This document shows, piece after piece, positions 41,722-64,000 of a DNA stretch of 64,000 bases. The notes under the pieces are model-generated. The model had not been told where the DNA came from. It made no database searches and saw only the letters and a list, made by a program, of their open reading frames with translations. The position numbers were made by a program, and so were the translations under genes. The stretch is from positions 6,168 through 70,167 of the forward strand of contig CAWBZB010000015.1 in the NCBI GenBank assembly GCA_963793105.1. The letters run 5' to 3'. Each line of letters starts with the position of its first letter. Position 1 is the stretch's first letter. Source of the stretch: an uncultured bacterium. GTDB lineage: Bacteria; Actinomycetota; Actinomycetes; S36-B12.

Positions 41722-41771
41722 CTCAGGGAAGCTGCCCTGGCGTGACACGACTACCTGGAGAGTGACCTGCC

Positions 41772-43178: not shown

Positions 43179-43209
43179 TCCTGCGTCAACGGAGGGGTTG
43201 ACGGGTCTA

Positions 43210-43234
43210 CCCTCGAGGTGTCAGCACTCGAGGG
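43210..43234 (+). terminator. possible tig terminator hairpin
   Basis: CCCTCGAG-N9-CTCGAGGG, 32 nt after the tig stop. No T-tract. The right arm overlaps the SD of the next small ORF. Confidence 0.35.
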
Positions 43235-43241
43235 AGGCGTC

Positions 43242-43430
43242 ATGGCGGGCAACAACAACGCGGCGGCCGGCGGTGCCGGTGCCGTCTACGGGCTCGGGTT
43301 CCTGGGGGCCCTGGTCTGGAACTGGCAGCAGGCCGACACCTTCTGGGGCTATCCCTGGGGCGTCATCGAGTCCTTCTTCTGGCCCGGGTTCCTGGTCTAC
43401 GAGCTGTTCAAGGTGTCGGCCGGCGTCTGA
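43242..43430 (+). CDS. small membrane protein (62 aa), function unknown
   Basis: ORF 43218..43430 from the ATG preceded by GGAGG. Very high GC3 and two hydrophobic segments. Confidence 0.55.
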   Translation: MAGNNNAAAGGAGAVYGLGFLGALVWNWQQADTFWGYPWGVIESFFWPGFLVYELFKVSAGV

Positions 43431-43530
43431 CGGCTTCCGCCCCTGCAGAGTCCAGAATGGGGCCGTGACGCGAAGAGCCCTGGGCCGCACGTCTTACCGA
43501 CGAGGCGATCTCCCAGACGCTCGGCACCTG

Positions 43531-44535
43531 ATGGTGACGTCGGCCGCGAACGCAGCAGCACCCCGCAGGCCGCGAGTGACCGTGGTCGTGGCCACCTACA
43601 ACCGCTCCAACGTTCTGCGTTACGCACTCGACAGCCTGGTCGCTCAGAGTCACTCTGACTGGGAGGCGGTGATCGTCGGTGACCGGTGCACCGACGACAG
43701 CGAGGCCGTCGTGGCCTCCTTCGGGGACGCGCGGATGACGTGGGTGAACCTGCCCCGCAATCTGGGTGAGCAGTCCGGGCCCAACAGCGTCGGGGCCCGG
43801 ATGTCCCGCGGATCCTTCATCGCGTGGCTCAACCACGACGACATGTGGTCCCCTGTGCATCTCGAACACCTGCTCGAGGTCGCGCAGCGTCATGAGGCGG
43901 ACTTCGTGGTCAGTGCATGGCTGGCCGTCGGACCGCACTCCCGGCAGGATCTCGACGCGGGAAGGCTGACAGCGGAAGTCTGGAACGCCACCCCACGTGA
44001 TCGTCTCGATCCAAGGGGTGTCTACCCCGCGTCGACCTGGTTGGTCGACGCCCGGCTGGTACGCCGGATCGGAGACTGGCGACCCGCAAGCACGCTGAGA
44101 GCGGCGCCATCTCAGGACTTCGTCTACCGCTGCTGGGCGAGCGGGGCGCGAATGCGATTGACCGGAAGGCCCAGCGTCGTCGCGATTCAGTCCGGCAGGT
44201 TCGAGGGCGCCTACGCGACGCGACGGGCGAGCGAGCACGAGGCGTTCGCTCCACTCGTGGCGTCGAACAGCCCCGAAGGCCTGATGTCGGAACTCCACGC
44301 CACTGTGCCGCCTCCGCCCGACCTGGATGAGCCTCCATGGCGGCACGCTGGCGCGGTTCAGACCTACGCGTGGCGACAGGCCTACTCAGCATTCTCGCGC
44401 TCGGCCGTGCCGATGGCGGCGCGGCTCGGATGGGGTCCGAACGAACTCAAGGCGTGGGCCAAAGGACGTTCGGCGGGCGCCTTCATGGCCGAGTTACACG
44501 CACAACGGGGCATCGAGCGCAGAGGTTCTGGGTAG
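43531..44535 (+). CDS. glycosyltransferase family 2
   Basis: ORF 43198..44535 from ATG 43531. VVVATYNRS, VGDRCTDDS and WLNHDDMW motifs. Confidence 0.75.
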   Translation: MVTSAANAAAPRRPRVTVVVATYNRSNVLRYALDSLVAQSHSDWEAVIVGDRCTDDSEAVVASFGDARMTWVNLPRNLGEQSGPNSVGARMSRGSFIAWLNHDDMWSPVHLEHLLEVAQRHEADFVVSAWLAVGPHSRQDLDAGRLTAEVWNATPRDRLDPRGVYPASTWLVDARLVRRIGDWRPASTLRAAPSQDFVYRCWASGARMRLTGRPSVVAIQSGRFEGAYATRRASEHEAFAPLVASNSPEGLMSELHATVPPPPDLDEPPWRHAGAVQTYAWRQAYSAFSRSAVPMAARLGWGPNELKAWAKGRSAGAFMAELHAQRGIERRGSG

Positions 44536-44544
44536 GTTGGGGGT

Positions 44545-45081
44545 GTGGCAGATGACGGCTGGCTTCTGGACGGTGTGCAGGACGACGTGTCCATCACGGC
44601 CGATTGGCAGCCGGTCGCGGCACAGGCCATCGATGGCGTGCAGATCCAGGAAGTGCGGAACGTCCCCACCGGCTATGGGCACCTGACCGAGTTCTTCCGC
44701 GCGGACTGGGGCTTCGTCCCGTCTGAGGTGGGGCAGGTCTTCCAGTCGGTCCTGCTGCCCGGCCGATTGTCAGCGTGGCACGCGCATGGCGAGACCACCG
44801 ATCGGCTGTTCGTCGCTTCGGGGGCGTTGCTGGTGGCGTTGTACGACGCCCGCGAGGCCTCGCCCACGCGCGGTCAGCTGCAGGTGGTCCGAAGCTCGAT
44901 CCTGCGACCGCAACTGGTCGTGGTGCCGCCGCGCGTGTGGCACGGGGTCAAGAACGTCGGCAACGAAGCCGCGACCTTGGTCAACATGGTGGACCTTGCG
45001 TACCGCTACGAGGGCCCGGACCACTATCGGCTCCCCCCTGATGCATCCAGCATCCCGTTCGACATCGTGGCCGCCCTGTAG
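44545..45081 (+). CDS. RmlC-like cupin (dTDP-4-dehydrorhamnose 3,5-epimerase family)
   Basis: ORF 44545..45081. Cupin beta-barrel with WHAH and PPRVWHGVKN motifs. Confidence 0.65.
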   Translation: MADDGWLLDGVQDDVSITADWQPVAAQAIDGVQIQEVRNVPTGYGHLTEFFRADWGFVPSEVGQVFQSVLLPGRLSAWHAHGETTDRLFVASGALLVALYDAREASPTRGQLQVVRSSILRPQLVVVPPRVWHGVKNVGNEAATLVNMVDLAYRYEGPDHYRLPPDASSIPFDIVAAL

Positions 45082-45110
45082 TCACCCTCGAGTACGACGT
45101 CGGCATTCGG

Positions 45111-45133
45111 CCCACGGCGAACTCCGCCGTGGG
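45111..45133 (+). terminator. possible terminator hairpin between the cupin gene and clpP1
   Basis: CCCACGGCG-AACTC-CGCCGTGGG, a 9-bp perfect stem. No T-tract. Confidence 0.4.
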
Positions 45134-45206
45134 TGGGGAAGCCGCATGGTGGCCGCCGCGTTAGGGTCAGACAACAGTCACCGAACGGCGACGGCAACAG
45201 GAGGCT

Positions 45207-45848
45207 TTGGTGGGCGACATCTACGTGCCCGACTCTCGCGGTGCGGGCGGCGGCATGACCGGCTTCGGCGACATGCTCGACGAGCGGCTGCTCCGCGAGC
45301 GGATCATCTGGCTCGAGGGCGAGGTGCGGGACGAGAACTCCAACCGCATCGCCAAGCAGCTCCAGGTGCTGGCCGCCGAGGATCCCGAGCGCGACATCAC
45401 CCTCTACATCAACTCGCCCGGCGGCTCGATCAGCGCTGGCATGGTCGTGTACGACACGATGCAGCTGATCCCCAACGACATCACGACGGTGGCGATGGGC
45501 CTGGCCGCCAGCATGGGCCAGTTCCTCCTGTGCGCCGGGGCTGCGGGCAAGCGATACGCCACCCCGAACACGCGCGTGATGATGCACCAGCCGTCAGGCG
45601 GGCTGGGCGGCACGGCGTCGGACATCAAGATCCAGGCCGAGCAGATGCTGTTCATCAAGAAGCGCATGGCCGTGCTCATCGCCGAGCACACCGGCCAGAC
45701 GCTCGAGCAGATCGAGAAGGACTCCGACCGCGACCGCTGGTTCGACGCGGAGGCCGCACGCGAGTACGGAATCATCGACCACGTCTACAGCACGGCCGCT
45801 GACTCGCCCGAGGCGAAGGCCACCAAGGGCAAGGGAGACTCCAAGTGA
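45207..45848 (+). CDS. clpP1: ATP-dependent Clp protease proteolytic subunit
   Basis: ORF 45207..45848 with GTG after AGGAGG. INSPGGS, catalytic Ser in GLAASMG, His in MMHQP. Confidence 0.9.
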
Positions 45849-46471
45849 GCGCCAGCGCGAGCAACCTGACCGGCCCCACGGGCCGCTACATCCTGCCGGA
45901 GTTCCGGGAGCGCAGCGCCAATGGCGAGCGCATCCACAACCCGTACACCAAGCTGTTCGAGGAGCGCATCATCTTCCTCGGCGTGCAGATCGACGATGCC
46001 AGCGCGGACGACGTCATGGCCCAGCTGCTCACGCTGGAGTCCCTCGACCCCGATCGCGACATCCAGATCTACATCAACTCGCCCGGTGGCTCGTACACGG
46101 CGATGACGGCGATCTACGACACGATGCAGTTCGTCAAGCCGCAGGTGCAGACGGTGTGCCTGGGCCAGGCAGCGAGCGCCGCGGCGGTCCTGCTCGGTGC
46201 CGGCAGCCCGGGCAAGCGTTTCGCCCTGCCGCACGCGCGGATCCTCATCCACCAGCCCTACACCGAGGGCGGCGGCCAGGGGTCGGACATCGAGATCCAG
46301 GCGAACGAGATCATCCGGATGCGCACCGAGATGGAGGGCATCATCGCCAAGCACACCGGCCGGAGCCCCGAGCAGGTGGCGGAGGACATCGAGCGCGACA
46401 AGATCCTCACGGCGGCAGATGCCAAGGAGTACGGCCTCATCGACGCGGTCATCTCCAGCCGCAAGGCCTGA
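45845..46471 (+). CDS. clpP2: ATP-dependent Clp protease proteolytic subunit
   Basis: ORF 45845..46471. GTGA overlap with clpP1. INSPGGS, GQAASAA and LIHQP motifs. Confidence 0.9.
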
Positions 46472-49696: not shown

Positions 49697-50511
49697 GTGA
49701 TCTCTGTCGTCGTGGCCGCCCGAGACGAGGAGCCGCGGATCGCGGATTGCATTGGGTCGGTGGTGGCCTGGGCGGACGAGGTCGTTGTCGTGGACGATCA
49801 CAGCACGGATCGCACGGCAGCGGTGGCGGAGGAGTGCGGTGCCCGGGTCGTCCGACTCGAGGGCAGCCTTCTCGAGATCGATGAGGTCCGGGGTCGTCCA
49901 GACCTGGTCTTCCGCGAGGGGTTTCTCGCGGCCCGGGGCGACTGGATCCTGCGGATGGATGCGGACGAGCGCCCGAGCCCGGACCTGCTCACCCGTCTCG
50001 GCGAGGTCGCAGCGGAGGGTGGTTACTCGGGGGTGAGGTTCGCCCGCCGCTACTACTACTTCGGGGACTGGCTGCGCCACGGCGGGTGGTTCCGCTCGGA
50101 GCAACTCGGCTTCTTCCGGGCCGATGCGTGGGATAGATCGTGGCCGCGGGCGATCCACCAGCACGTGTCGGTGGCCGGCCGGGTGCTCGCTCTTCCGGCC
50201 GACGAGTCGCTGAGCATGGCGCACCTGGAGTATGACGACGTCACGCAGTTCGTGACCCGTGCCCTGCTGTCCTACGCGCGTGCGGACGGGCGCGGGCGGG
50301 CGCGGGCCGGTGGACCCGCCCGGCGCCCGTCACTGTTCGCGAGGCCAGCGCGTCGCGCGCTCGGGCGTTACGTGCTGCGGGGTGGCTTTCGGGATGGGAC
50401 CAGGGAGCGGTGGCCGCCGCCCTGCTGGGGGCCTACGAGGTGTGCGCCGAGGCGTACGCCTGGGAGGCGACCCGGTCCGCTTCTCAGTCGGCGTGGAGCA
50501 GCTCGGAGTAG
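49697..50511 (+). pseudogene. glycosyltransferase family 2, frame change near 50395
   Basis: ORF 49697..50548 (ISVVVAARDEE, DDHSTD, RMDADE ... YVLRGGFRDG) continues in another frame as QGAVAAALLGAYEVCAEAYAWE up to the TAG at 50509-50511. Confidence 0.7.
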
Positions 50512-51623
50512 GCGCCCTCGATGGTCGAACGCCATTGCGCCTCGCTGAATTCGGCCTCGAAGGCACTGCGGGCGGTGTTTCGGAGGGCCTGGCCGCCGCG
50601 GCCGACATCCTCGAGCGCTGATGCCAGGGATGCCGCGGAGCTGTAGATCCTCCCGGCGCCGGTCGACTCGATGTACGCGGCGAGCCCGCTGCCCGCCCGG
50701 GCGATGACGGGAACCGAGCCCTCCCATGCCTCGACCGCCACGAGTGGAACGGCGCCCTCGGGGCCGACGCTCGGCACGATCATCGCGGAGTACTCCCACA
50801 GGCGTGCGCGCCATCGGGCGTTGTCGATCGCGCCGAGCAGAGTGACGTCCGGATGCGCGGGCAACCGGACGGTCGCGTCCTCTGACGCGCCTCCGATGAT
50901 GTCGAGCCGCCGACCAGGTGGCCACTGCTCGACGAGCTCCGCGAAGCCCTTCTCGGCACTGAGCCGTCCGACCGCGAGGTACCGAGGCAGTGGGGGCGGC
51001 AGTGTGGTGCTCCCATGGATGTCGGTGGTGAAGTTGGGCACCAGGCGCATGCGGTCGGAGGGGATGCCGAAGCGCAGGAACAGGTCCCGCGCCACCGGCG
51101 ACAGCACGATGACCCGGTCGGCCCGGGCGACGACGGGGTGCGCGGCGATGCCGTGCCGGTTGGCGATGGCCAGGGGCAGGCTCGCTACGGCGGACCCTCG
51201 GTAGCACGCATGCCGCACACCGGCGAGACGGTCGCCGTCGGGACATTCCGTGCACCAGGCGTTGTCGCGCAGCAGGAGCGCGTTGACGCACGCGTACCGG
51301 TAGTTGTGGAGTGTGGTGACGAGCGGTCCGGACCAGGTCTTGAGCCATCGGGTGCCGAAGTTCGGGAAGAGGTTGTGCACGTGGACGAGGTCCGGCCGAA
51401 AGGCATGGAGCTCGGCGACCGGGCTGGCGCCTCGGCCCGACGCGACGCGCACCGCCGACTGGAGCGGGTACAGCGCCCGGCGGGACTCGTCGTCGGTGTG
51501 CCGCGCGACGACGAGCACGTCGTGGCCGGCCTCGGCGAGCGAGCGGACCTGCTCCAGGACGGTCGCGTTCTCCCCGCTGGGGTTGCTTGATGCGTAGAAG
51601 CTGTGGACGATCCCGATGCGCAC
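50484..51623 (-). CDS. glycosyltransferase family 4
   Basis: ORF 50484..51623. GT-B fold with N-terminal IGIVHSFY and the EX7E-like region GPEGAVPLVAVEAWEGSVPVI. Confidence 0.85.
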   Translation of the reverse strand: MRIGIVHSFYASSNPSGENATVLEQVRSLAEAGHDVLVVARHTDDESRRALYPLQSAVRVASGRGASPVAELHAFRPDLVHVHNLFPNFGTRWLKTWSGPLVTTLHNYRYACVNALLLRDNAWCTECPDGDRLAGVRHACYRGSAVASLPLAIANRHGIAAHPVVARADRVIVLSPVARDLFLRFGIPSDRMRLVPNFTTDIHGSTTLPPPLPRYLAVGRLSAEKGFAELVEQWPPGRRLDIIGGASEDATVRLPAHPDVTLLGAIDNARWRARLWEYSAMIVPSVGPEGAVPLVAVEAWEGSVPVIARAGSGLAAYIESTGAGRIYSSAASLASALEDVGRGGQALRNTARSAFEAEFSEAQWRSTIEGAYSELLHAD

Positions 51624-51629
51624 AGGCGG

Positions 51630-53424: not shown

Positions 53425-53694
53425 TCAGGAATCCGACGCGGTGAGGATCCCGATCGTCGTCATCTTCGCCAGGAACGGCTCGACGTCCGCGCGGCACCGC
53501 TCGTCGCTGACGTCGAACTCCTCCCGCAGTGACGAGACCAGGGCGTCGACCGTCGCCGGCTCCGCCAGCAGCGCCCAGACGCGCGCCCCCACACGGTCGA
53601 GCGAGTGGTAGCTGAAGTCGGCAGGAGAGAGCAGGACGACCTGGCCGTCGACGACAGCGTCGACGGCTCCGGTGGCGCGTGAGTACACGGTCAT
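53425..53694 (-). CDS. PqqD-family peptide chaperone (RiPP recognition element)
   Basis: ORF 53425..53763 from ATG 53694, with ATGA overlap on the kinase stop. VVLLSPADFSYHSLDRVGARVWALL...TVDALVSSLREEFDV...DVEPFL is the typical PqqD pattern. Confidence 0.8.
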   Translation of the reverse strand: MTVYSRATGAVDAVVDGQVVLLSPADFSYHSLDRVGARVWALLAEPATVDALVSSLREEFDVSDERCRADVEPFLAKMTTIGILTASDS

Positions 53695-54562
53695 GGCGGC
53701 GTGGTGCTCCCTTGGTCGACGATGATCGAGGCGATGTGGTCCAGGACGATGTCGAGGTGCCACCCTTCGGGCGGTCGGGTGACGCGGTGCACCTCGACGC
53801 TGGAGGCCAGCCGGGTGGCCCAGGCGAAGAACGAGTGAGCGCGACCGTCGGCAGCAGAGATGCCGGCGGAGTTGGAGTTGTTCAGGATCGCCTGGATCCG
53901 CTCGGCGCCCGACGAGCGGCGCGGCAGGCGACGTCGGTGGCAGTGCTCTCGTCGATCATCAGCTCGACGGCGACGCGGAGCGGCCGGGCGCCGTCGACCC
54001 ACGGGCACGCTCGCGCTGATCTTGCTGAGCTCGGACGTCCCGACGCGGGCCGTGTCGGGCACCTCGAAGTGCGCCGCGGCCTGGTCGGTGAGGTGCACGG
54101 GACGCTCCCAGCCGAAGACGATACGGCTGGTCGTCGACGAAGTCGACCGGGACGACGTCGTCGATGATCAGGTGCGTGCCCGCGGCGGCTCGAGTGCGGT
54201 GACGGTGGTGGACTTGCCGGCGCCGGAGAAGCCCATGACGGCCAGGGCGCCGGCGTCGATGACGACGGCGGACGCGTGCAGCGTGTACTCCTGCCGCAGG
54301 ACGCGGATCCAGCGCGGCGCCCACCCGTAGACCAGGTAGTCCATGTCGTGGACCGTGCGGCCGGGGCTCCGGCTCGAGGGTGACGCTCTGGGCGGTGACG
54401 TGCATGCGCCCGACGCCGTCGATCAGGGCGAGGAACTCACCGGGCGCCATCTGCATGAAGCCCTCGTCGCGGGTGACGCCCTCGAGGCTCTCGGCGATGG
54501 GCGCCGACGACCACGTCGACCCCCCATTCGCGCGCGGGGAAGCCGGCGGCGATGGAGGTCAT
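53691..54562 (-). pseudogene. HprK-related P-loop serine kinase (lasso/RiPP-associated type), at least six frame changes
   Basis: Seven colinear segments in three frames rebuild about 283 aa, including LHASAVVIDAGALAVMGFSGAGKSTTVTAL and HLIIDDVVPV. Frame changes lie near 54500, 54362, 54185, 54120, 53995 and 53915. Confidence 0.7.
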
Positions 54563-54684: not shown

Positions 54685-54813
54685 CTACGCTGGGTGGGGC
54701 TGGGACTGGGGGTGCCGTTGCGGATGCGGGCGTGACGGGTGCCCGGACGCGCCGTCGGCGTCGCTGAGGGGCGTGACCTCGGGGGCCTGCCAGTCGAGCT
54801 TCTCGCTAGTCAT
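54685..54813 (-). CDS. putative RiPP precursor peptide P1 (42 aa as written; tail frame uncertain)
   Basis: MTSEKLDWQAPEVTPLSDADGASGHPS... It is a DNA-level tandem paralogue of P2. Relative to P2 it has a 1-nt insertion near 54735 and lacks one AACGGC unit. Confidence 0.5.
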   Translation of the reverse strand: MTSEKLDWQAPEVTPLSDADGASGHPSRPHPQRHPQSQPHPA

Positions 54814-54822
54814 TGTCGGGTC

Positions 54823-54957
54823 CTAGGTTCGGGTGGGGCTGGGACTGGGGGTGCCGTTGCCGTTGCGGATGCGGGCGGACGGGTGCCCGGATGCGCCGTC
54901 GGCCTCGGTGATAGAGGTGACGTGCGGCGCGGTCCACTCGCTCTTGTCAGGAGTCAT
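54823..54957 (-). CDS. putative RiPP precursor peptide P2 (44 aa)
   Basis: MTPDKSEWTAPHVTSITEADGASGHPSARIRNGNGTPSPSPTRT, within ORF 54823..55008. GC3 is very high. Has the W-x-A-P-x-V leader-like motif. Confidence 0.55.
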   Translation of the reverse strand: MTPDKSEWTAPHVTSITEADGASGHPSARIRNGNGTPSPSPTRT

Positions 54958-55060: not shown

Positions 55061-56104
55061 ATGCCAACACTGCGCCGCTACCTGTCGGCCGGGCGCGACG
55101 TCGCGCGTGACGCGGTGACCTGGCGCCCGGGTCGGCAGACCAGCGAGGACACCTACCTGGCCGTCCGCACCCTGCATCGCAAGACCGGAGGAGTCTCGAG
55201 CAGGGCCGCGCTCGCGGTGGTGCGGGCACGTGCACGACCGGGGCGGGGCTGACGCCGCGGGCGCGCTGGACGCCCGCGTGGCAGCCGGCGCTCGCGGACG
55301 GTGAGCAGGGACGGCGTCGAGCGTGACGCCGCCGCTGCTCGACGACGGCGGCCGCTGGCGCGGATCCGCGACTTCGCGGCGACGGCCCCGGCCATCCTGT
55401 CGCAGCGTCGACGGCAGCGACGCAGGCGCGGGACCCTGCAGGATCGGGACGCCGGACACGGCCGGGGTGCGCATCGTCGAGCGGTTCGTCCTCGACCAGC
55501 CCGACATCCAGGGCGTCATCGCCAGCCCGCAGGTGCGCGACTTCGCGCGCGGCCTACTTCCACGCGACCCCCGTGATGCACCCGCCGCAGCTGTACTGGT
55601 CGCTGCGCCGGCGCCCGGCTGATCGGGCGAGGCGGCGGCCGTCGAGCGCGCGTCGGTTCCACTGGGACTACGACGGCCTGGCCGGCCTGCGGCTGCACAT
55701 GTACCTGACCGACGTGGACGAGGGCGCGGCGCCGATGAGCTACGTCCTGGGCAGTCACGCCCAGGGCGGGCTTCGGTCACCGGCACTGCGGCAACGCGGA
55801 CATGGGCGTCGCCGACGAGGAGCTGTACGCGCAGTACCCGGCCTCGGCGGTGCGGGCCATCACCGGCCCGGCCGGCACGACGTTCATCAGCGACTCCCGG
55901 GGCCTGCACCGCGGCAACGACGCCATCAGCGCGGACCGGCTCTTCCTCGTCATGCCGATGCAGGCCACCGGGTTCGGCGGCTACCAGCTGCGCCCGCGGC
56001 TGGTGACCCCGAAGGACCCGGGGCTGAAGGCCGGGATCGAGCAGGGCCGGGTGGAGCTCAGCCTCTTCCGGCCCCGCCCCGAGGGGTCGGCCGGAACGCG
56101 CTGA
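55061..56104 (+). pseudogene. PhyH-like Fe(II)/2-oxoglutarate dioxygenase, at least three frame changes
   Basis: ATG 55061 follows GGGAGG. Colinear pieces lie in ORFs 54833..55252, 55323..55622, 55573..56433 and 55802..56104. FHWDYD...YVLGSH and GLHRG give a His-x-Asp...His triad. Confidence 0.6.
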
Positions 56105-56512
56105 CGGCCGTGAACCCGTCGCTTGCCGGTCCGCCGACCACGGTGCCGGTGCTGCCCGACCAGCCAGGCGTGGGCGTCCCAGCCATCGGTGCGGCGCAGG
56201 CCGATGATCGCCGTGCCGGGCCGTCGGCGCAGCCGCAGCATGACCTGTGCGGCCAGGGCCTGGTCGAGGCAGTTCGCCTGCCACGGCACGCGACGGACGG
56301 CACGGCCCACCGCCGCCTGCACGGACGCCTCGACTGCCGGTGGGCGAGGAGCCGTCCGGCCCGGCGTCGGGGGCGGGCACGGGGCTCCCGAGCAGGCGGT
56401 GCCAATGCCGCGTCGACAGGGTCCGGCGGGTGACGGATGCGACGGCGAGGACGGTCCATGCCTCGGCGAGCATCGCAAGGTCCATCGCCCGCACGCGCGC
56501 CCGCTCAGCCAC
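56058..56512 (-). pseudogene. lasso-peptide B2-type transglutaminase-like cysteine peptidase, two frame changes
   Basis: The N-terminus AMLAEAWTVLAVASVTRR is in ORF 55037..56512. The core RRVPWQANCLDQALAAQVMLRLRR...DAHAWLVG is in ORF 55981..56985. The tail STGTVVGGPASDGFTAV is in ORF 56058..56459. Confidence 0.7.
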
Positions 56513-56518
56513 GAGGTG

Positions 56519-56524
56519 ACTCTA
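56519..56524 (-). promoter_or_regulatory. -10-like hexamer TAGAGT, 6 nt upstream of the B2 GTG (possible leaderless start)
   Basis: The minus strand reads GCCTAGAGTcacctcGTG. Confidence 0.3.
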
Positions 56525-56558: not shown

Positions 56559-56564
56559 TAGGGT
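56559..56564 (+). promoter_or_regulatory. -10-like hexamer TAGGGT, 7 nt upstream of the P3 ATG (possible leaderless start)
   Basis: The plus strand reads GCTAGGGTgacgcccATG. Confidence 0.3.
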
Positions 56565-56571
56565 GACGCCC

Positions 56572-56673
56572 ATGACGAATCCCAGCACCCCCGAGGCCCG
56601 CGAGCCCTGGCAGTCCCCGTCCGTCGAGCAGATCGCCGTGACCGACGACGCGCAGTCCATTTCCTTCGCCTGA
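56572..56673 (+). CDS. putative RiPP precursor peptide P3 (33 aa)
   Basis: MTNPSTPEAREPWQSPSVEQIAVTDDAQSISFA, the end of ORF 56437..56673. 31 of 33 codons end in G/C. Shares W-x-S-P-x-V-x-x-I with P1 and P2. Confidence 0.55.
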   Translation: MTNPSTPEAREPWQSPSVEQIAVTDDAQSISFA

Positions 56674-56684
56674 CCGATCCGGTC

Positions 56685-57827
56685 CTAGCCGCGAAGCGGC
56701 AGTCGGCCTCCTCGCGTGAGCGCGAGCCAGCGGGCGAGGTCGCGGGCCTCCCGGTAGGTCAGCCGCGCATCCCCTCGATGCGCGTGCCGCCACGTGCGCC
56801 GCACGCTCAGCAGTTCCGCGGCCAGTCGCGGATCCGTCTGGATCGCGCCCATGATCGTCCGCGACAGGTTCGTGGTCGTCGTTGGGGCGGGGCCTGAACC
56901 AGGGGCCGGCAGCGGCTCGCCCGCCCGGATGGCGCGCAGCGCGGGCAGGAGCGGGTACCCGAGCCGGTGCTGGTAGGCGTGCCACACGTTGGGCCGCAGG
57001 TCCACCTCGAACACCGCGTGCGTCCCGTTCGGGCGCCTTATGGCGGACAGGTTGCCGAACCAGCGACCGCCCAGCGCCGCGGCGATGCGGTCGAGGTCGG
57101 CAAGCAGGCGGCGATCGGTCAGCGGGACGAACTGCCGCGTCACCGAGACCCCGTAGGGGCCGAGCGACCGGAGCACGCGGGAGTAGGGGGCGGTGGCGAC
57201 CCGGCCGTCACTGACGAGGATGTCGATGGACACCAGGAACCCGTCGACGAGTTCCTCGACGAGGTAGGGCCCCTCGTTCCCGCGTCGCGGCACCACCACG
57301 TCGCCGGGAGATCGCAGCACTGTGGTGCCGGCGCCCGCGCCGCTGCGGTCCGCCTTGACGATCACCGGGTACCCGAGGGTCGCGGCTGCGTGCGGCAGGT
57401 CCCCGGGGGAGGGGGCCACCGTCCAGCGGGGCTGGTCGACGCCGAGGTCGCGCAGGAGTGCGGCCATCCCGGTCTTGGTGCCGACGGCGTCGAGGTGCGC
57501 GGCGGGTACCGGCAGCAGGGCCAGTGCACGCGGGTGGTGCTCGGCGGCCGCGAGCACGTCCCAGACGTCTGCATCGGAGCCGAGGATCACCCAGTCGCCG
57601 GGTCCGACCGAGTCGGCGATCGTCGCGAGGATGGCGTGCCGCTGCTCGAGGTCGTCGGGCAGCGTGGCGCATCGGCGGGGGTGGCGGCTGTAGCCCAGGC
57701 GGCTCCCCGGAGCCGACCACACGTCGACGGTGAGGCCGGCGGCGGTCAACATCGGCAGGAGGCGAGCAACGGCGGACGGGTGCGGGGAAATGACGACAAC
57801 GCGGTCGACGCCGGCGCCCGTGGTCAT
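56685..57827 (-). CDS. ATP-grasp domain ligase
   Basis: Last 380 codons of ORF 56685..58922 from ATG 57827. GYPVIVKADRSGAGAG, YLVEELVDG and FEVDLRPN are typical ATP-grasp motifs. Confidence 0.8.
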   Translation of the reverse strand: MTTGAGVDRVVVISPHPSAVARLLPMLTAAGLTVDVWSAPGSRLGYSRHPRRCATLPDDLEQRHAILATIADSVGPGDWVILGSDADVWDVLAAAEHHPRALALLPVPAAHLDAVGTKTGMAALLRDLGVDQPRWTVAPSPGDLPHAAATLGYPVIVKADRSGAGAGTTVLRSPGDVVVPRRGNEGPYLVEELVDGFLVSIDILVSDGRVATAPYSRVLRSLGPYGVSVTRQFVPLTDRRLLADLDRIAAALGGRWFGNLSAIRRPNGTHAVFEVDLRPNVWHAYQHRLGYPLLPALRAIRAGEPLPAPGSGPAPTTTTNLSRTIMGAIQTDPRLAAELLSVRRTWRHAHRGDARLTYREARDLARWLALTRGGRLPLRG

Positions 57828-57859
57828 GACGTTGGACGATATCCGGCGGCGTCCACGGA

Positions 57860-58604
57860 CTACAGCAGCCCGAGCCGCGCTGGCCCGCGCGACGGCCTCC
57901 TGCCTCGTGGAAACGCCGAGGACCCTCAGGGCCCGCTGGAGGTCGGCCTTGACGGTGTCGCGGGAGCACCCGAGCTCCAGGGCGATCGACGCGTTGCCGA
58001 GCCCCCGTTCGACGCCCTGCAGGATGCTCGCCTGCCGTGGGGTGAGGGCGAGCCCGGGGCTCCAGGATCGCGGGAGGTCGGGGGGCGCTGGCCGGCTCGG
58101 GTGCGTCAACCACAGTCCCAGGGCGGCCGACAGGCCGAGCAGGGCCGGCTGGGCGTCGACGGATGCGGCGGCGGGGTCGGCGGCGAGGAAGCCGTAGGCC
58201 CCGACGGCCGTGCCGTCGAGCGCGATCGGGACGCTCATGAGCACCCCGTCGGGCAGGTCCGCGAGCAGCGAGGTCCACATCCCGGCATCGATCTCGAGCA
58301 GCGGGTACTCGTCCAGCAGTGTGCGCAGCGACGTGGCCACCGGCATTCCCTGCTGCACGGCGAGCACGAAGGGCAGGTGGCCGCGCATCGGGATCGCCCG
58401 GTACCGGGCAAGCTCGTCGGTCGGGTAGCCGTCGCTCGCCAGCGTGAGCAGTTCGTCGCCGACCAGGCGCACGATGCTGCCGGCGGTCGCCCCGAAGGCG
58501 GCGAGCGGACCGTGCACGAGCGCGGGGACGACGATCGCCGGGGAGGGTAGGGAGGCGAGGAGGCGCAGGAACGGGCCGAGCGCCGGCAGGTGGAGGCCGG
58601 TCAC
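57860..58604 (-). pseudogene. GAF-like + LuxR-type HTH regulator, paralogue 1; frame change near 57885 removes the stop
   Basis: GTG 58604 overlaps the paralogue-2 stop (GTGA). A one-base correction gives the typical C-terminus ARLGLL followed by TAG at 57860-57862. As written it reads through into the ATP-grasp gene. Confidence 0.7.
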
Positions 58605-59338
58605 GAGGGGAGCTGCCCGAGGGCGGTGGCCCGTTCGATCGCCGAGGCGCGCGTGGCGACGCCCAGGGCGGCGTAGATGCGGCGCAGCTCCGCCTTCACC
58701 GTCGAGTCCGAGATCGAGAGGGCGGCGGCGATGGCGGTGTTGGACCTCCCGGCCGCCACCATGCCCAGGATGTCGACCTGCCGGGCTGTCAGCGACCCTG
58801 CGACGACGTCCGGAGCGAGGTCGGCCGCGGGACCCGGGTGGCTCAGCCACAGGCCCAGGGCGGCGCCGTACGCCTCGAGCCCGGCGATCTCCGTGGTGCT
58901 CCACTGCCGTTCGTCGCGGCAACTGAATCCGAAGGCGCCGATCGCGCGGCCCTGCAGCACGATGGGCGCGGTCACCAGCGACCCGTACCCCTCACTGGCA
59001 ATGGCCCGGTCCCAGAGGTCGTCGTCCCGCTCGAGCCCGGCATTCTCCGGCAGCACCTCCAGGGCACCGGAGATGATGACGGCCTGCTCGCGGAAGGCCC
59101 GCGTCATCGGGTAGTCGCCGGCGTTGGGCATCACCCGGTAGGGCTCGACCATCTCGGCCGGGTATCCGTAGTCCCCGACGATCACCTGGTCTCTGCTCAC
59201 CGCGGTGCTGAGGACGCCGGCGTGCGCGCCGAACTCGGCCAGCGGCCCCGTGACCAGGGCGGTGATCACCGTCGTCGGGTCCGGCCGGGTGCCGAGCAGG
59301 AGCAGGATCTCGGCGATCCCCGCCCGGTCGCCGCTCAT
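58601..59338 (-). CDS. GAF-like + LuxR-type HTH regulator, paralogue 2
   Basis: ORF 58601..59338. C-terminal LTARQVDILGMVAAGRSNTAIAAALSISDSTVKAELRRIY. Confidence 0.8.
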   Translation of the reverse strand: MSGDRAGIAEILLLLGTRPDPTTVITALVTGPLAEFGAHAGVLSTAVSRDQVIVGDYGYPAEMVEPYRVMPNAGDYPMTRAFREQAVIISGALEVLPENAGLERDDDLWDRAIASEGYGSLVTAPIVLQGRAIGAFGFSCRDERQWSTTEIAGLEAYGAALGLWLSHPGPAADLAPDVVAGSLTARQVDILGMVAAGRSNTAIAAALSISDSTVKAELRRIYAALGVATRASAIERATALGQLPS

Positions 59339-60117
59339 CGGGCCAGCTCCGCGGCCTGCTGCGCGTCGTCGAGGAGTCCGAGCGCTCGCGCCCGCGCGAC
59401 GGCGACGTCGCGGTCATCGGTGCGCAGCATCCGCATGATCTGGCCCAGGTCGGTCTTGACGGTGGATGCCGAGTAGCGAAGGAGGTGGGCGATCAGCTCG
59501 GTCGGCAGGCCCTGCTCGACCATCAGCAGGATGAGCTCCTGACGGTGGGTGAGGGCGACGGGTGTCTCGTCGGACTGGACGGCCGTCGGCGTGACCTTGA
59601 CCCGTCGCGGGTGCGTCAGCCACAGGCCGAGGGCCGCACCGATCGCGAGAAGCGCGGTCTCGTCGGCGTCGGTCCAGTCGACCTTGCGGTCGCAGATGAA
59701 TCCGTATGCGCCGACGACGCGCCCGTCGTACCGGATCGGCACGTTGCCGATGGACTCTGCCCCGAGCCGCTCGACGATCGCCTGCCACAGCGCCTCGTCG
59801 AGGGCGGCCGCGCGGTAGTCGCGCGCGTTGGTGGCCGCCTCGGCGGGCTGGAACGAGTCGTCCCGGGCGGCCCGGGTGATCGCGAAGTCGAGGCGTAGCG
59901 GGATCCGGCCGTGCCGGGAGGTCTCGTCCGCGGTGTGCCCGTACATGGCCAGCCGGTCCAGGTGATCGCCGTCGATCAGCTTCCAGATCCCGCCGGCGCG
60001 CGCGCCGTAGTGGCTCAGCGGTCCGTGCACCAGGGCAGCGAGGGTGCCTTCCGGGGCGGGCAGGGTCGACAGGTACTGCAGCCATGACGACTGTCCGGGC
60101 AACGCTGCGGACGGCAT
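59335..60117 (-). CDS. GAF-like + LuxR-type HTH regulator, paralogue 3
   Basis: ORF 59335..60555 from ATG 60117 after GGAGGTGGAGG. C-terminal LTHRQELILLMVEQGLPTELIAHLLRYSASTVKTDL. Confidence 0.8.
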   Translation of the reverse strand: MPSAALPGQSSWLQYLSTLPAPEGTLAALVHGPLSHYGARAGGIWKLIDGDHLDRLAMYGHTADETSRHGRIPLRLDFAITRAARDDSFQPAEAATNARDYRAAALDEALWQAIVERLGAESIGNVPIRYDGRVVGAYGFICDRKVDWTDADETALLAIGAALGLWLTHPRRVKVTPTAVQSDETPVALTHRQELILLMVEQGLPTELIAHLLRYSASTVKTDLGQIMRMLRTDDRDVAVARARALGLLDDAQQAAELAR

Positions 60118-60437
60118 CGCCTCCACCTCCCCCGAGGTCCCCCGCCTGCGCAGATGCAGGACGTGATGCTCACCGTATCTCCCAGTTGCGCCATCGGCCC
60201 GGGGATCCGCGCGAGCGGCGCCGTGGCGGGTATGACCAGGGCATGGTCGCCATGGCGTCGACCGGGGAACGGGCGCGTGAACTAATGGCTCCCGGCACCG
60301 GATACGCGCGGTGCCGCGCGCGCCGATGGGGGTGCTGCAGCCGAGCGGGGGACGGCTCCAGCGCCCCCGTTCGGTCTGGACGGTCACACCGCCCGCTGGG
60401 CCGGTCATGAGGCAGTCGTGCGGCGGACACTGGAAGC

Positions 60438-61487
60438 ATGAGGCGGGTTCCCGCGGTCGCGACGGCACTCCTGGTGGTTCTTGCGTTGGCGGGCTGCACC
60501 GCGCAGGCGGTCGTCCTTCCCCCCGCAGAGCCCGTCCCGGCACCGTCGGCGGCAACCGGGGATGCGGACCCCTTCGTGACGGGCCTGACGGTGCCGTGGG
60601 CGATCGGCGGCATGCGCATCGAGCGGGACGGCCGGCTGCGCTACTTCGCGGGGGAGTGGCCCACCGTGCCCGTCGCCGCGCTGCGGCTGTGGGACACCCG
60701 CACGGCCTGGCTCAACATCGAGCCCGCGGACGACCGGTGGGACTTCGCCCGGCTGGATGCCTTCGTCGACAAGGCGATCGCGCGCGGCACGACGGACATC
60801 TCCCTGACCCTGGCCGGGACACCGAAGTGGGCTGCCACCACGGTGTCCGACTCGGACGCTCCCTGGCTCGGCCCGGGCTCGGCCTCGCCGCCGAGGCGGA
60901 CCGCCGAGTGGCGGGAGTTCGTCACGAAGGTGGCCACCCGGTACCGCGGCCGGATCACCTCCTACGAGATCGGCAACGAGCCGAACCTCAGGGCCTTCTG
61001 GAGCGGCACGCCGGGCCAGTACGGGACGTTCGTGCGCACCGCCGCCGAGGCGATCCGCGCGGCCGATCCGCAGGCGGTCATCGTCGCCGCGGTGGGGCTG
61101 GTGCGCGGCCGGAAGGACCTCGACGGCCTGGCCCCGTGGATCGACGCGGCGACCTCCAGCTTCGAGGTGGACGCCGTCTCCGTGCACGTCTACCCCAAGG
61201 CGTCGGCGATGGACGCCGCGCCGACGCTGCTTGCGGGCGTGCGGCGGCACGTCGCTGCCGGGGCGCCGGAGGAGAAGCACCTGTGGGCCACCGAGGTGAA
61301 CGTCCACGGCGGCAGCGACCTGTCCAGGTGGCGGCAGGAGTCGGCGGTCCTGGACCTGACGGAGTCGGCCGAGGCGGCGGGGTTCTCCCGCGTCTACTGG
61401 TACGCGTGGACGGACCTCGGCCCGGAGGACCTGATCCAGCTGGCGCCCGGGACGCCCGGCGCCGGGGCGCTGGCCGCGATCAGCTGA
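60438..61487 (+). CDS. clan GH-A TIM-barrel glycoside-hydrolase-like lipoprotein
   Basis: ORF 60438..61487. Lipobox LALAGC. YEIGNEPN (acid/base Glu) and WATEVN (nucleophile Glu). Confidence 0.7.
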   Translation: MRRVPAVATALLVVLALAGCTAQAVVLPPAEPVPAPSAATGDADPFVTGLTVPWAIGGMRIERDGRLRYFAGEWPTVPVAALRLWDTRTAWLNIEPADDRWDFARLDAFVDKAIARGTTDISLTLAGTPKWAATTVSDSDAPWLGPGSASPPRRTAEWREFVTKVATRYRGRITSYEIGNEPNLRAFWSGTPGQYGTFVRTAAEAIRAADPQAVIVAAVGLVRGRKDLDGLAPWIDAATSSFEVDAVSVHVYPKASAMDAAPTLLAGVRRHVAAGAPEEKHLWATEVNVHGGSDLSRWRQESAVLDLTESAEAAGFSRVYWYAWTDLGPEDLIQLAPGTPGAGALAAIS

Positions 61488-63420
61488 GCCGGATGGGCCG
61501 GATGCCCACCGTCACCGTGCCGCCGGAGATCGGCGAGCACCGGCCGTCCATGTCGCACTGCTGCGACAGCCCGGCGGGCACCCGAACGTCGACAGGCTCC
61601 CCGGAGGACGAGTACGCCAGGGCGTAGCGGGACGCACCCCGCGCGAACCCGCACACCACGGCCGGCCCGTCGGAGCCGCAGGACGTGAGCGAGGCGCCGA
61701 CGAGCTGGTCGTGGGTCCACTTCCACGCGGCGATCGTCTCGGGCGTGCCGGGGTTCGTCTGGATGCCGAGGAGCCGGTAGTAGCCGGCGAACCACAGGTA
61801 CCAGTCCACCTGCTCGACGCCGTAGCGGGCGGCGTCGATGAAGGTCTGGGCCAGGTACCCCTGGGCCTGCGCCCCGTTGATCTCCCGTCGGGTCTCGTCG
61901 AGGCCGCCGAGGCCGTAGTTGATCTCGGTGTCCCAGATCGGCTTGGTCGGGGCCTTGGCCAGGGCCAGCATCTCCTTGAACAGGGCGATGGACTGGGCGC
62001 GCTGCTCCGGCCCGCCGGCGGCCCGGGGGTAGGTGTGGAAGGTGTAGCCGTCGACCGGCCAGCCCCGCTCGGCCAGCCGGACGAGGTACTCGCTGAAGAA
62101 CGGATACACCGCGGTCCCGGTGCGCATGGTGGTCGACGGGGTGAGCACGAGGGACGACAGGCCGCGGTCCTTCACGGCGGAGTGGACGATCTCGGTCATG
62201 TCGACGAGGTCGGCCAGGGACTCGGAGACCTTGACGAACAGGTTCGGCTCGTTCCACACCTCGTAGGCGTCGATCCGGTTCCCGTACCGCGACACGACCG
62301 CGTTCACGTACCTGCGGAACTCGGCGATGTCGCTCGGCGGGTAGGCCGGGCTCGGCCCGGCCCAGCCGGGGGTGTCCCCGAACACATACGTGACCTTCTT
62401 GCCGTTCGCCTCGGCGTAGGCGACGGCGTCGTCGATCCACTTCCAGTAGTAGATGCCGCGGTTCTGCTCCAGGGGCTCCCACCCCGTCTTGGCGTCCCAC
62501 AGGCGCAGCCACTCGTACTGCATCTCCGGCAGCGGCCCGCCCACGTCGGGCACGTGCAGGCCGAAGAAGGACGGCGGGATCGCCGCGCCGGCCGGGGCGT
62601 CCAGCACGGCCGTCGTGGACCACGGCCGCGCGGCCGTGCCCGGGGCGAGGAAGGGGTTGCCGGTCTCGGTGGCGGGCACCGGGTTGATGCGGTTCAGGGG
62701 CTTGACGCTCACCCGCCCGGAGCACGAGTCGACCTTGGCCTGCATCGCGGCCGCCGCCGAAGGCTCCACGGACAGTCCCCAGGACGCGAGGATCGACGTG
62801 ACCCCGGCGATCTCGCCGCAGGTGGGCCTCCAGGACCGCTGCGTGGTGAGGTCGGTGACCTGCGCGGTCAGGCGGGCGTTGGACTGCAGGACGTAGCCGC
62901 ACCCCGCGCCGGAGCGCCCGCCGCTGCCGATCGCGCACTCCCGCGGCGCCTTCTGGTACCAGCGAAGGAACGAGCGGCGCTGGGCGTTCGACCAGCCGTA
63001 GGCACCCTGGTTCCACGCCGTCTTGGCGGAGACCAGCGGCACGACGTCGACGCGCGAGGCGCCGCGGACGGTGCGCCTGCCCCCGTCGACGAGCCAGGAC
63101 CCGCCGGTCAGCCTGCACCCGGCGCCCACCCGGGGCTTCGACGAGGCGCTGGCGATGAGCACCCGCTCGCGCTTGAGGCAGCCGCGGGAGTCCTTGCGGT
63201 TCACCGGCGGCACCGCGAAGGAGGCGTAGGTGTAGCCGTTGTCGATCTGGGGGACCACGGGCAGGCGGTCGAGGACGGTGGCGATGTCGGCGCGGGCGCG
63301 ATCGATGCCGGGGGAGAGGGGCTGAGGGGCGGCCACTGCCGCCGAACCCAGGGCCCCGATCGTCATGGCCGCCAGTGCCAGGCCGATGGGCACGGTCGTT
63401 CCCCAGCGGGCAGTTCGCAT
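61480..63420 (-). CDS. secreted two-domain protein: degenerate DUF1524/HNH-nuclease-like N-domain plus clan GH-A TIM-barrel domain
   Basis: ORF 61480..63786 from ATG 63420 after GGGGGAAG. Signal peptide. VDVVPLVSAKTAWNQGAYGW resembles the DUF1524 core but lacks the His. YEVWNEPN and WDTEINYG are present. Confidence 0.65.
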   Translation of the reverse strand: MRTARWGTTVPIGLALAAMTIGALGSAAVAAPQPLSPGIDRARADIATVLDRLPVVPQIDNGYTYASFAVPPVNRKDSRGCLKRERVLIASASSKPRVGAGCRLTGGSWLVDGGRRTVRGASRVDVVPLVSAKTAWNQGAYGWSNAQRRSFLRWYQKAPRECAIGSGGRSGAGCGYVLQSNARLTAQVTDLTTQRSWRPTCGEIAGVTSILASWGLSVEPSAAAAMQAKVDSCSGRVSVKPLNRINPVPATETGNPFLAPGTAARPWSTTAVLDAPAGAAIPPSFFGLHVPDVGGPLPEMQYEWLRLWDAKTGWEPLEQNRGIYYWKWIDDAVAYAEANGKKVTYVFGDTPGWAGPSPAYPPSDIAEFRRYVNAVVSRYGNRIDAYEVWNEPNLFVKVSESLADLVDMTEIVHSAVKDRGLSSLVLTPSTTMRTGTAVYPFFSEYLVRLAERGWPVDGYTFHTYPRAAGGPEQRAQSIALFKEMLALAKAPTKPIWDTEINYGLGGLDETRREINGAQAQGYLAQTFIDAARYGVEQVDWYLWFAGYYRLLGIQTNPGTPETIAAWKWTHDQLVGASLTSCGSDGPAVVCGFARGASRYALAYSSSGEPVDVRVPAGLSQQCDMDGRCSPISGGTVTVGIRPIRLS

Positions 63421-63446
63421 GCTTCCCCCGTCGATTCCTCGGTCGT

Positions 63447-64000
63447 TCAGACCTCTTGGCGCTGCTGGAATGCGTCGAACTCGGCCTGGAGCTCGTCCAG
63501 GTTCTTCACCAGGTCCCAGTCGCCACTGGACACCTGCTTCTCGGTGACCGTGGAGACATCGGCGGGGGCGACGCCGAGTGAGTCGAAGACCCGGGCGCAG
63601 GTGCCGGGAACGTCGCCGACGAGCTGGTCGTAGTGCACGTCCAGGTAGTTCGGCCCGGCGAAGCGGAGCGCGAAGTAGGCATCGGCCCGGTACATGTCGT
63701 CGAAGAAGGCCCGGGCGCGGTCCGGTTCGATCTCGAACGGCTCCACGGTGGCCCGGGACTGAGGGTCGTGCGACCAGTTGACCCACTGCCGGCTGCGGGT
63801 CGCGAACTCCAGGGAGATCAGGACGCTGAGGTAGTCATCGCGCCGCATGTGCAGGAGATGGGCGGTGGGGTAGTGCGCCCGAATGCGCCTGAAGAGGTGC
63901 GTCGCGCCGCCGGTGGACACGTGGTCAGCGAAGATCTTGACGCCCACGACGTCCACCTCGCGGCCCAGGTAGTCGGTACGCACGCCGAAGACGTGCTCGT
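63447..64000 (-). CDS. Stf0-like sulfotransferase family protein, 5-prime end outside window
   Basis: ORF 63447..63983 stays open to the window edge. The general Stf0-type layout is present (...LHMRRDDYLSVLISLEFA ... YLDVHYDQLVGD). Confidence 0.55.
   Translation of the reverse strand, partial: EHVFGVRTDYLGREVDVVGVKIFADHVSTGGATHLFRRIRAHYPTAHLLHMRRDDYLSVLISLEFATRSRQWVNWSHDPQSRATVEPFEIEPDRARAFFDDMYRADAYFALRFAGPNYLDVHYDQLVGDVPGTCARVFDSLGVAPADVSTVTEKQVSSGDWDLVKNLDELQAEFDAFQQRQEV

Follow-up and report, generated by a model that had tools for sequence, protein, structure and literature searches.

The 64,000-nucleotide stretch of an uncultured actinobacterium considered here (contig CAWBZB010000015.1; referred to as the window in the following) contains a gene cluster in which a small open reading frame (ORF) of 33 codons, P3, is located between a gene for a lasso-type B2 leader peptidase and one for an ATP-grasp ligase. 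Judged by its conservation in other clusters, P3 is a genuine, evolutionarily conserved gene that codes for protein. Its product is a member of a family of peptides of 30-36 residues, not described before and termed P3-type peptides. Since this family always adjoins one ATP-grasp gene in lasso-like clusters without a cyclase, P3 most likely encodes a precursor from which an uncharacterised modified peptide is made. On balance, and with some reserve, we favour the view that P3 is the precursor of a RiPP (a peptide synthesized ribosomally and modified post-translationally). As such, it would serve as substrate of a module composed of B2 and the ATP-grasp enzyme, together with a RiPP recognition element (RRE) where one is present, and two further small peptides of the cluster, P1 and P2, would belong to a second substrate family. 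New in this cluster, as far as sequence comparison can tell, would be the P3-type precursor family as well as an RRE/B2-type, RiPP-like system carrying an ATP-grasp enzyme in the place of the cyclase.

P3 and its homologues in related gene clusters

P3 extends from an ATG at position 56572 to a TGA at 56671-56673 on the forward strand and encodes the product MTNPSTPEAREPWQSPSVEQIAVTDDAQSISFA. Its ATG is separated by 60 nt from the GTG start of the divergently oriented B2 gene (56512, reverse strand), and 11 nt past its own stop follows the stop codon of the convergently oriented ATP-grasp gene (56685-56687, reverse strand). The position of the ORF, its 33-residue translation and both spacings had been given in the same way by an initial annotation, made from the letters of the window alone, and could all be reproduced. 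As no space for a normal terminator is left between the stop codons of P3 and the ATP-grasp gene, the convergent transcripts must overlap. The gap between the two stops belongs to a small palindrome (GACCG-ATC-CGGTC, 56672-56684).

The initial annotation had further named the absence of a homologous small ORF from related clusters as grounds for giving up P3. Such an ORF was found at the same position in two loci (L001 and L003) and next to an orthologous ATP-grasp gene in two others (L029 and L015, the latter with two copies). In the five loci, that of the window included, each of the six P3-type copies is found no more than 60 nt from the ATP-grasp gene. In L001, the ATP-grasp gene is followed by a P3-type ORF on the opposite strand, MTINDSALREPWQPPTVTEVAVVADAAEPFSI, and then by B2. 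L003 displays the order LuxR gene, P1/P2-type peptide gene (MDDTRDWQAPEVTPLSEEDGASPAQARIRNLAPVSPPP), ATP-grasp gene, opposite-strand P3-type ORF (MTENLTPEPWQPPTVEEIALVDDARLVSDV) and B2. In case of L029, which encodes a 36% identical ATP-grasp protein, the P3-type ORF MTDNDARQPWSAPEVTKVQVVSRAQELISKPT runs across the stop of the ATP-grasp gene and is followed by genes for an NTP_transf_5 protein, an HPr kinase, the P1/P2-type peptide MSVWSTPSVEPLTDPDGMQIQDSAPIRNGEVISKIPVEDPVF, PqqD and B2. L015 (54% G+C; ATP-grasp 29% identical) carries B2 divergent from two P3-type genes, MENSSPQQTATRSTPKVEQISVVRPDLIQSLLSPT and MADISNPQQETTWSSPKVEQISILNTEMILAPSGGG, which are located directly before the ATP-grasp gene. 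The P3-type gene is thus usually arranged tail to tail with the ATP-grasp gene and head to head with B2. In four of the five loci, the P3-type and ATP-grasp genes converge with stop codons at most 11 nt apart or overlapping, an overlap being found in L003 and L029. Operon-like spacing upstream of the ATP-grasp gene is seen for the P1/P2-type gene of L003 (20 nt) and for the P3-type genes of L015 (55 nt). The B2 gene is intact in L001, L015 and L029, and the host clusters are GC-rich and probably actinobacterial. L029, an intact cluster, comes from contig Ga0498918_0068170 of JGI 3300048834, and L001 from k141_1753022 of ENA ERZ27315062.

Coding potential and strand assignment

A profile built from the five P3-type peptides outside the window retrieved P3 at E=2.8e-9 from 8,046 six-frame ORFs, and a profile of only the distant L029 and L015 copies found it at E=4.6e-5. 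Using a profile of the close trio, the L029 copy was detected at E=1.3e-4. The sum-of-pairs BLOSUM62 score over the conserved block amounts to 387 in the sense frame, compared to 220 in the antisense frame with shared wobble positions and at most 151 in the remaining ones (151 and 147). Depending on the locus, the stretch V-E-Q-I is encoded as GTC GAG CAG ATC, GTT GAA CAG ATT or GTT GAG CAA ATT, and these synonymous changes leave the four residues intact across loci of 54% and 72-77% G+C. Likewise, the ATG start, the stop and the length of the gene are retained in the six copies.

An argument for real coding had previously been seen in the preference of P3 for G or C at third codon positions. 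The underlying count is correct (31 of 33 codons, with a codon-position G+C of 0.58/0.55/0.94 in a window of 71% G+C), and so is the conclusion that P3 is coding. Taken alone, the argument is weak, and it cannot tell the strands apart because the antisense frame over P3 is likewise open, uses identical wobble positions and matches the ATP-grasp frame in phase. This second open frame might also suggest that P3 is not a gene, but an ORF open by chance in GC-rich DNA whose conservation stems from promoter or terminator DNA or from coding on the opposite strand. DNA of 71% G+C contains few stop codons, the P3 ORF covers the divergent B2 promoter and the 3' end of the ATP-grasp gene, and in L001 a gene caller picked the antisense ORF. 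Such an explanation is already largely refuted, however, and is considered very improbable. Apart from the superior score of the sense frame, the synonymous replacements between 54 and 77% G+C and the common start, stop and length, Shine-Dalgarno sites are present on the sense strand in L015. Moreover, the L015 peptides are placed differently relative to the ends of the ATP-grasp and B2 genes with their sequence still being kept, and the frame of the antisense ORF relative to B2 varies between loci. An Rfam scan of the window yielded two tRNAs only and no family match at P3.

Two candidate origins of the antisense ORF were rejected. A decayed extension of the ATP-grasp gene is ruled out since the orthologous proteins, of 374-378 aa, all stop at the same position, and an upstream extension of B2 is ruled out since the ORF is in frame with B2 in L003 only. 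The P3-type family is systematically mis-annotated: automatic gene calling placed an antisense ORF over the P3-type gene of L001 (L001 11151-11294, forward strand) and left the L003 copy (1370-1462, reverse strand) uncalled. Pfam and NCBIfam models, precursor models included, gave no match to P1, P2 or P3 at E<=10. A profile search of 5.8 billion proteins with P1, P2 and P3 returned only the P2 and P3 of the window itself. As the L003 peptide was not returned despite an 11-residue word in common with P2, this word-index protein database evidently lacks such short peptides.

Architecture of P3-type and P1/P2-type peptides

The conserved segment of the six copies reads (E/Q)-P-W-(Q/S)-x-P-x-V-(E/T)-x-(I/V)-(A/S/Q)-(V/I/L). 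It is followed by tails of 8-14 variable residues (TDDAQSISFA, VADAAEPFSI, VDDARLVSDV, SRAQELISKPT, LNTEMILAPSGGG and VRPDLIQSLLSPT), in which only two features recur, an acidic residue and, at a distance of 2-4 residues from the end, a Ser or Thr. Common to the high-GC copies is also an Ala at +11 relative to the Pro, a position that in the alignment coincides with D-G-A in P1/P2-type peptides. The combination of a conserved N-terminal half with a hypervariable tail is precursor-like and suggests RiPP-precursor architecture. P3-type peptides also present the general features of an RRE-dependent RiPP precursor, namely a short ORF next to enzyme genes, a conserved putative leader and a hypervariable putative core.

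All P1/P2-type peptides and five of the six P3-type peptides contain the motif W-x-x-P, the exception L015b having R-x-x-P. RRE recognition sequences of the W/Y/LxxP kind are established and are shared by lasso and PQQ RREs and by a part of the sactipeptide RREs (PMC12710340). As stated in the initial annotation, the longer motif W-x-(A/S)-P-x-V-x-x-(I/L)-x-x-x-D is common to P1, P2 and P3; among the six-frame short ORFs of the 64 kb it matches these three and one unrelated ORF only. Alignment of the two families with hhalign gave P=0.0016, with the W-x-x-P-x-V motifs aligned exactly. The sequence link between P3-type and P1/P2-type peptides hence appears to be real but weak. Both types occur together in the window, L003 and L029, and the earlier proposal of two peptide types within one cluster can be extended to a conserved design. 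In contrast, the description of P3 as an add-on, third ORF has to be revised, as P3-type peptides are tied to the ATP-grasp gene in five of five loci, whereas P1/P2-type peptides occur in three.

A second tail element, (A/P)-(R/I)-I-R-N, is found in the P1/P2-type peptides P1 (54823-54957), L003 (103-219) and L029 (3396-3524). P2 does not contain this element and has a tail rich in H, P and Q. In P1/P2-type peptides, D-G follows the W-x-x-P-x-V leader.

Putative promoter and translation signals

In all four high-GC P3-type genes, a TANNNT hexamer is found at -13 or -12, which leaves 6-7 nt up to the ATG (TAGGGT, TAACCT, TAGGGT and TAGCGT), while the background for such a hexamer at such a distance is 6 in 1,329 ATGs of the window (0.45%). 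In actinobacterial promoters, TANNNT at 6-7 nt before the ATG represents the geometry of leaderless mRNAs. P3 displays the arrangement expected of a leaderless gene, with TANNNT approximately 6-8 nt upstream of a start codon that would also be the transcription start. This suggests that P3 may possess a promoter of its own and be translated from a leaderless mRNA. Shine-Dalgarno sequences precede both L015 copies (GAGGAGGGAG and AGGA) and are found in none of the four high-GC copies. On the opposite strand, the -10-like hexamer TAGAGT lies before the B2 GTG, and the same TAGAGT precedes a B2 GTG at equivalent distance in L001. The putative promoters of P3 and B2 appear to be positioned back to back. 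A promoter/terminator scan with consensus sequences of E. coli-type sites found nothing.

The P3-B2 intergenic region contains the tetranucleotide CTAG three times in a stretch of 40 nt (56522, 56546 and 56558), compared to 27 times in the whole 64 kb. Two of these sites are part of the -10-like boxes, and the middle one forms the palindrome CCTAGG, possibly a regulator site.

The ATP-grasp ligase

The ATP-grasp enzyme was modelled by AF2 with a pLDDT of 89.6. According to Foldseek, its nearest folds are the L-amino-acid ligases RizA (4wd3), BL00235 (3vot) and YwfE (3wo1), as well as PylC (4ffl), PurK and biotin carboxylase, with TM values of 0.5-0.65 and identities of 13-19% that correspond to a fold-level resemblance. 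Graspetide cyclases are absent from the top 50 Foldseek matches of the model, and so is PGM1. The latter, involved in pheganomycin, is an ATP-grasp peptide ligase of this group. A sequence search of the PDB with the ATP-grasp profile retrieved generic ATP-grasp proteins (PurD, Ddl and RimK as best, at E >= 7.6e-6), the 60 best matches including no graspetide cyclase. Based on its model, the enzyme looks more similar to L-amino-acid ligases than to graspetide cyclases. In ligases of the RizA, BL00235, YwfE and PylC kind, the nucleophile would here be supplied by an alpha-amine freed by the leader peptidase; a small-molecule partner pathway is not evident in the cluster.

Upstream, the ATP-grasp ORF passes in frame into a GAF/LuxR regulator with no stop codon in between, and the database lists a single fused gene of 639 aa. 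Three GAF plus LuxR (GerE) paralogues are found in a row at 56685-58991, 58601-59413 and 59335-60711, all on the reverse strand. In L003, the LuxR gene, the P1/P2-type gene and the ATP-grasp gene are separate, and the window may have lost a stop codon and a peptide gene. A TATCGT box is located at -14 of the ATP-grasp ATG.

Proposed role of P3 and alternative explanations

If P3 is indeed a RiPP precursor, the half (E/Q)-P-W-Q-x-P-x-V-(E/T)-x-(I/V)-A-V would function as recognition or leader segment, with W-x-x-P as a variant of the RRE-bound Y-x-x-P, and the hypervariable last 8-14 residues would constitute the core. Where present, the PqqD-family RRE would presumably bind the leader, and B2 would cut off the recognition segment. 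As expected from related enzyme families, the ATP-grasp enzyme would activate a carboxylate as acyl phosphate for coupling to an amine, thereby taking the chemical place of the Asn-synthetase-like cyclase of true lasso clusters. The amide formed may close a small macrolactam, add an amino acid or link two peptides. P1/P2-type peptides may represent an accessory substrate family with the same recognition motif. A narrower and more tentative proposal, possible rather than probable, is that P3-type peptides, the ligase-like ATP-grasp enzyme and B2 (plus PqqD where present) form a new RiPP class in which ATP-grasp replaces the lasso cyclase. B2 would free an alpha-amine, which would then form an amide with a phosphate-activated carboxylate, resulting in a very small head-to-tail or isopeptide macrolactam or in ligation to a P1/P2-derived peptide or an amino acid. 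If true, this class would be unusual in having its precursor gene tail to tail with an enzyme gene and on a leaderless transcript.

A number of observations weigh against a role of P3 as precursor. A tail-to-tail layout with an enzyme gene is atypical for a precursor, and the window tail contains no acidic residue past D-D-A, which limits models based on side-chain cross-links. The P3 profile scores P1/P2-type peptides only marginally (E = 0.1-4.5; ranks 1st, 4th and 9th among non-members). In the 7.4 kb of L015, no PqqD is found although P3-type genes, B2 and ATP-grasp are present, so an RRE is either not generally required or escapes detection there. The P3-type family is carried by five loci only, three of them on short contigs. 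With respect to the ATP-grasp enzyme, the 5.8 billion proteins contain three close relatives (49-54% identity), and an exhaustive profile search gave 25 representatives below 1e-30. Profile scans of genome and metagenome contigs returned only relatives of 22-30% identity, among which L015 alone carries B2 and P3-type genes. Closely related ATP-grasp genes reside in polysaccharide-type loci without P3 or B2 (L002, L026-L028 and L031), and more distant ones in unrelated Gram-negative contexts (L032-L034); hence, the ATP-grasp family is not RiPP-specific. In the window itself, the pathway is likely non-functional since B2 and the kinase gene are broken, and a third gene is frameshifted, too. Nor is the intactness of P3 evidence of function there: with approximately one frame change per 280 nt locally, three short ORFs (366 nt) would escape by chance about 1 time in 4.

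The distant ATP-grasp relatives P0016, P0156 and P0159 were set aside, their contexts being unrelated. The ATP-grasp family repeatedly adjoins glycosyltransferase, Wzy_C or WecG genes (L026-L028, L030 and L001 1-10000), and the cluster of the window is flanked by GT2 and GT4 genes (49697-51629) and by glycoside-hydrolase-like genes (60411-63834). A link of the family to cell-envelope glycan synthesis is possible.

The main rival to the precursor role, which we regard as unlikely, is that P3-type peptides are real but not substrates. They would then be leader-like accessory or regulatory peptides, e.g. trans-acting activators or competitors at the RRE or at an ATP-grasp leader site, or their convergent transcription would control the ATP-grasp and B2 genes. 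The very short tail past the motif (8-14 residues) would fit such a role, as would the promoter-like box of P3 itself, back to back with that of B2, and the close or overlapping stops in four of five loci, which force an overlap of antisense transcripts. P1/P2-type peptides, moreover, have longer tails and are located operon-like before the ATP-grasp gene in L003. On the other hand, a pure antisense-RNA role needs no selection at the amino acid level, and a hypervariable tail next to a conserved leader marks a substrate rather than a regulator. In L015, the P3-type pair are the only candidate substrates, in the classical precursor position upstream of the ATP-grasp gene.

Somewhat less likely still is that P3 is a graspetide precursor as in the initial annotation, whose model predicted a mass shift of -18 Da. 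As in microviridins, the ATP-grasp enzyme would form a Ser/Thr-Asp/Glu lactone or a Lys lactam in the tail. Like microviridin, plesiocin and fuscimiditide, the product would be a ribosomal peptide modified by an ATP-grasp enzyme, the gene of which is the invariant neighbour of P3-type genes, and every P3-type tail offers at least one Asp or Glu and, 2-4 residues before the C-terminal end, also Ser or Thr. These residues, however, show neither fixed spacing nor repeat, and a repeated T/S...D/E core motif is missing. The enzyme, too, matches graspetide cyclases neither by sequence nor in the Foldseek top 50, being nearer to L-amino-acid ligases, PylC and PurK. Graspetide systems are not known to depend on a leader peptidase for closing their rings. 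The clusters here do contain an RRE and a lasso-type peptidase, whereas in an extensive graspetide survey a term search gave neither a transglutaminase-type peptidase nor a PqqD partner of these enzymes (PMC8939145).

By comparison with split-B lasso clusters of the paeninodin and pseudomycoidin type, the locus has in common a discrete PqqD RRE, a Transglut_core3 B2, an HPr-kinase homologue and, in L029, NTP_transf_5, a set known from phosphorylated or glycosylated lasso clusters (PMC8498205). Short precursors with an aromatic-x-x-Pro motif are a further common feature. A lasso precursor whose cyclase is encoded elsewhere would be in line with these enzymes, with the lasso_PqqD match at 5e-15 and with the Y-x-x-P-like motif in the leader, but is very improbable. 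No Asn-synthase Pfam match (PF00733) was obtained in the scanned ORFs, and no SGGxDS motif is present in six frames of the window, L001, L003, L015 and L029; the conserved partner is ATP-grasp instead. The tails are too short for a 7-9-membered ring plus threaded tail. They also lack ring-forming residues, with no consistent Gly/Ala/Ser/Cys start combined with Asp/Glu at core position 7-9, and have no C-terminal Ser for the kinase. Thr at -2 is not conserved either, T24 of the window being matched by V, V, V, L and V in the remaining five, and the clusters here contain two unrelated-looking core families each. Thus, B1, B2 and the Y-x-x-P-type motif of lasso systems are found, whereas the cyclase and the core anatomy are not, and a lasso fold is contradicted by the predicted anatomy of P3-type peptides to the point of exclusion.

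Very short acidic peptides of about 30 aa that are bound by a PqqD-family protein are also known from the PqqA/PqqD and MftA/MftB systems, and P3 resembles these. The V-E-E-(V/I) stretch, too, looks MftA-like by eye. Different from these systems, there is no radical-SAM gene among the ORFs annotated near the cluster, and no precursor model matches P3. WgkC, considered as a related system, belongs to the unrelated tryglysin system. In the literature, no description was found of a cluster combining ATP-grasp with lasso, B2, PqqD (B1) or HPr kinase.

Other genes of the cluster and probable local gene decay

The features of the P3 region are compiled in Table 1. The PqqD-family RRE gene is intact, and its product is 60% identical to the L029 PqqD. 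B2, in contrast, is recognisable as Transglut_core3 only once three reading frames are joined: its N-terminus, the C...H catalytic block and its C-terminus reside in different frames, and tblastn matches were obtained in two of them. The B2 gene of the window is either a pseudogene or affected by sequence errors. The HPr-kinase-like gene is similarly disrupted, aligning to the intact L029 kinase by approximately six frame hops and containing a stop at 54168-54170. A third broken gene, with high third-position G+C in each of its pieces, extends in three frames over 55305-56104 (forward strand) between B2 and P1. The last piece of this gene resembles by eye the C-terminal half of a PhyH/2OG-oxygenase-type protein and has no Pfam or NCBIfam match. 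It occupies the place of NTP_transf_5 in L029; a tblastn search of the window with the L029 NTP_transf_5 gave no match. Elsewhere in the window, housekeeping genes (amylase, prolyl oligopeptidase, MalQ and trigger factor) align over their full length to Pfam; therefore, the damage is local to the cluster. Roughly ten frame changes fall into 53.7-56.5 kb. Most simply, it reflects decay of the cluster, the alternative being a local assembly problem. The pathway is probably dead in this genome, with P3 as an intact remnant.

Table 1 Features of the P3 region in the window (+, forward strand; -, reverse strand)
Feature	Position	Strand	Description and evidence
P3 ORF	56572..56673	+	33 codons + TGA; member of the P3-type peptide family; translation, homologues, profile match
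P3 conserved half, W13-Q-S-P-S-V-E-Q-I-A-V23	56608..56640	+	putative recognition/leader segment; alignment, synonymous conservation
P3 variable C-terminal tail, TDDAQSISFA	56641..56670	+	putative core; predicted leader/core boundary
TAGGGT, -10-like TANNNT hexamer	56559..56564	+	7 nt before P3 ATG; candidate promoter for leaderless mRNA, putative function
TAGAGT, -10-like hexamer	56519..56524	-	6 nt before B2 GTG; putative function
ATP-grasp ligase	56685..57827	-	380 aa, intact; Pfam and NCBIfam ATP-grasp matches; convergent with P3
B2 peptidase (Transglut_core3, PF13471), lasso-type	56058..56512	-	at least two frameshifts; E=1.4e-14 on joined piece
P1, P1/P2-type peptide	54823..54957	-	44 aa; homologues in L003 and L029
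P2, P1/P2-type peptide	54685..54813	-	42 aa
HPr-kinase-like gene	53700..54560	-	about seven pieces in three frames; NCBIfam HprK_rel_B on P-loop fragment; tblastn with L029 kinase
PqqD-family RRE (lasso B1-like)	53428..53763	-	intact; Pfam PqqD 2.8e-16, NCBIfam lasso_PqqD 5e-15

Genomic surroundings

The neighbourhood of P3 is ordinary chromosome and not a mobile element, with the two tRNA genes, a trigger factor gene and ClpP-like ORFs nearby. The tRNA genes are located at 41646-41718 (forward strand) and 31357-31427 (reverse strand). In the region 41766-46471, trigger factor is followed by two adjoining ORFs (45165-46471) that are ClpP-like by eye. A cupin gene beside the ATP-grasp gene of L001 is 70% identical to window positions 44545-45072. 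At the edge of the window, a fragment of a Sulfotransfer_3-family gene is found (63447-63998, reverse strand), and sulfotransferase genes have been reported from the termini of lasso clusters with a kinase in Firmicutes (PMC8498205). In L015, conserved-looking proteins without Pfam match (1547-2695, forward strand; 4959-5903, reverse strand) flank the module of B2, P3-type and ATP-grasp genes. The flanking protein of 382 aa displays SET-domain-like motifs by eye (NHHP...ECFVNYGG).

Implications

As seen for the L001 and L003 copies, gene finders overlook such genes of 30-36 codons or place them on the wrong strand, and comparative six-frame profiles are therefore needed for their detection. 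Among database entries, about half of all discrete lasso-type RRE proteins have no lasso cyclase in their neighbourhood (PMC7470986). The present locus, a module of a small peptide family, B2 and ATP-grasp, is a candidate answer to the role of such cyclase-less RREs. If the peptide is a substrate, this would mean unexplored RiPP chemistry that employs a toolkit of leader, RRE and peptidase, together with a ligase related to enzymes already used in peptide synthesis.

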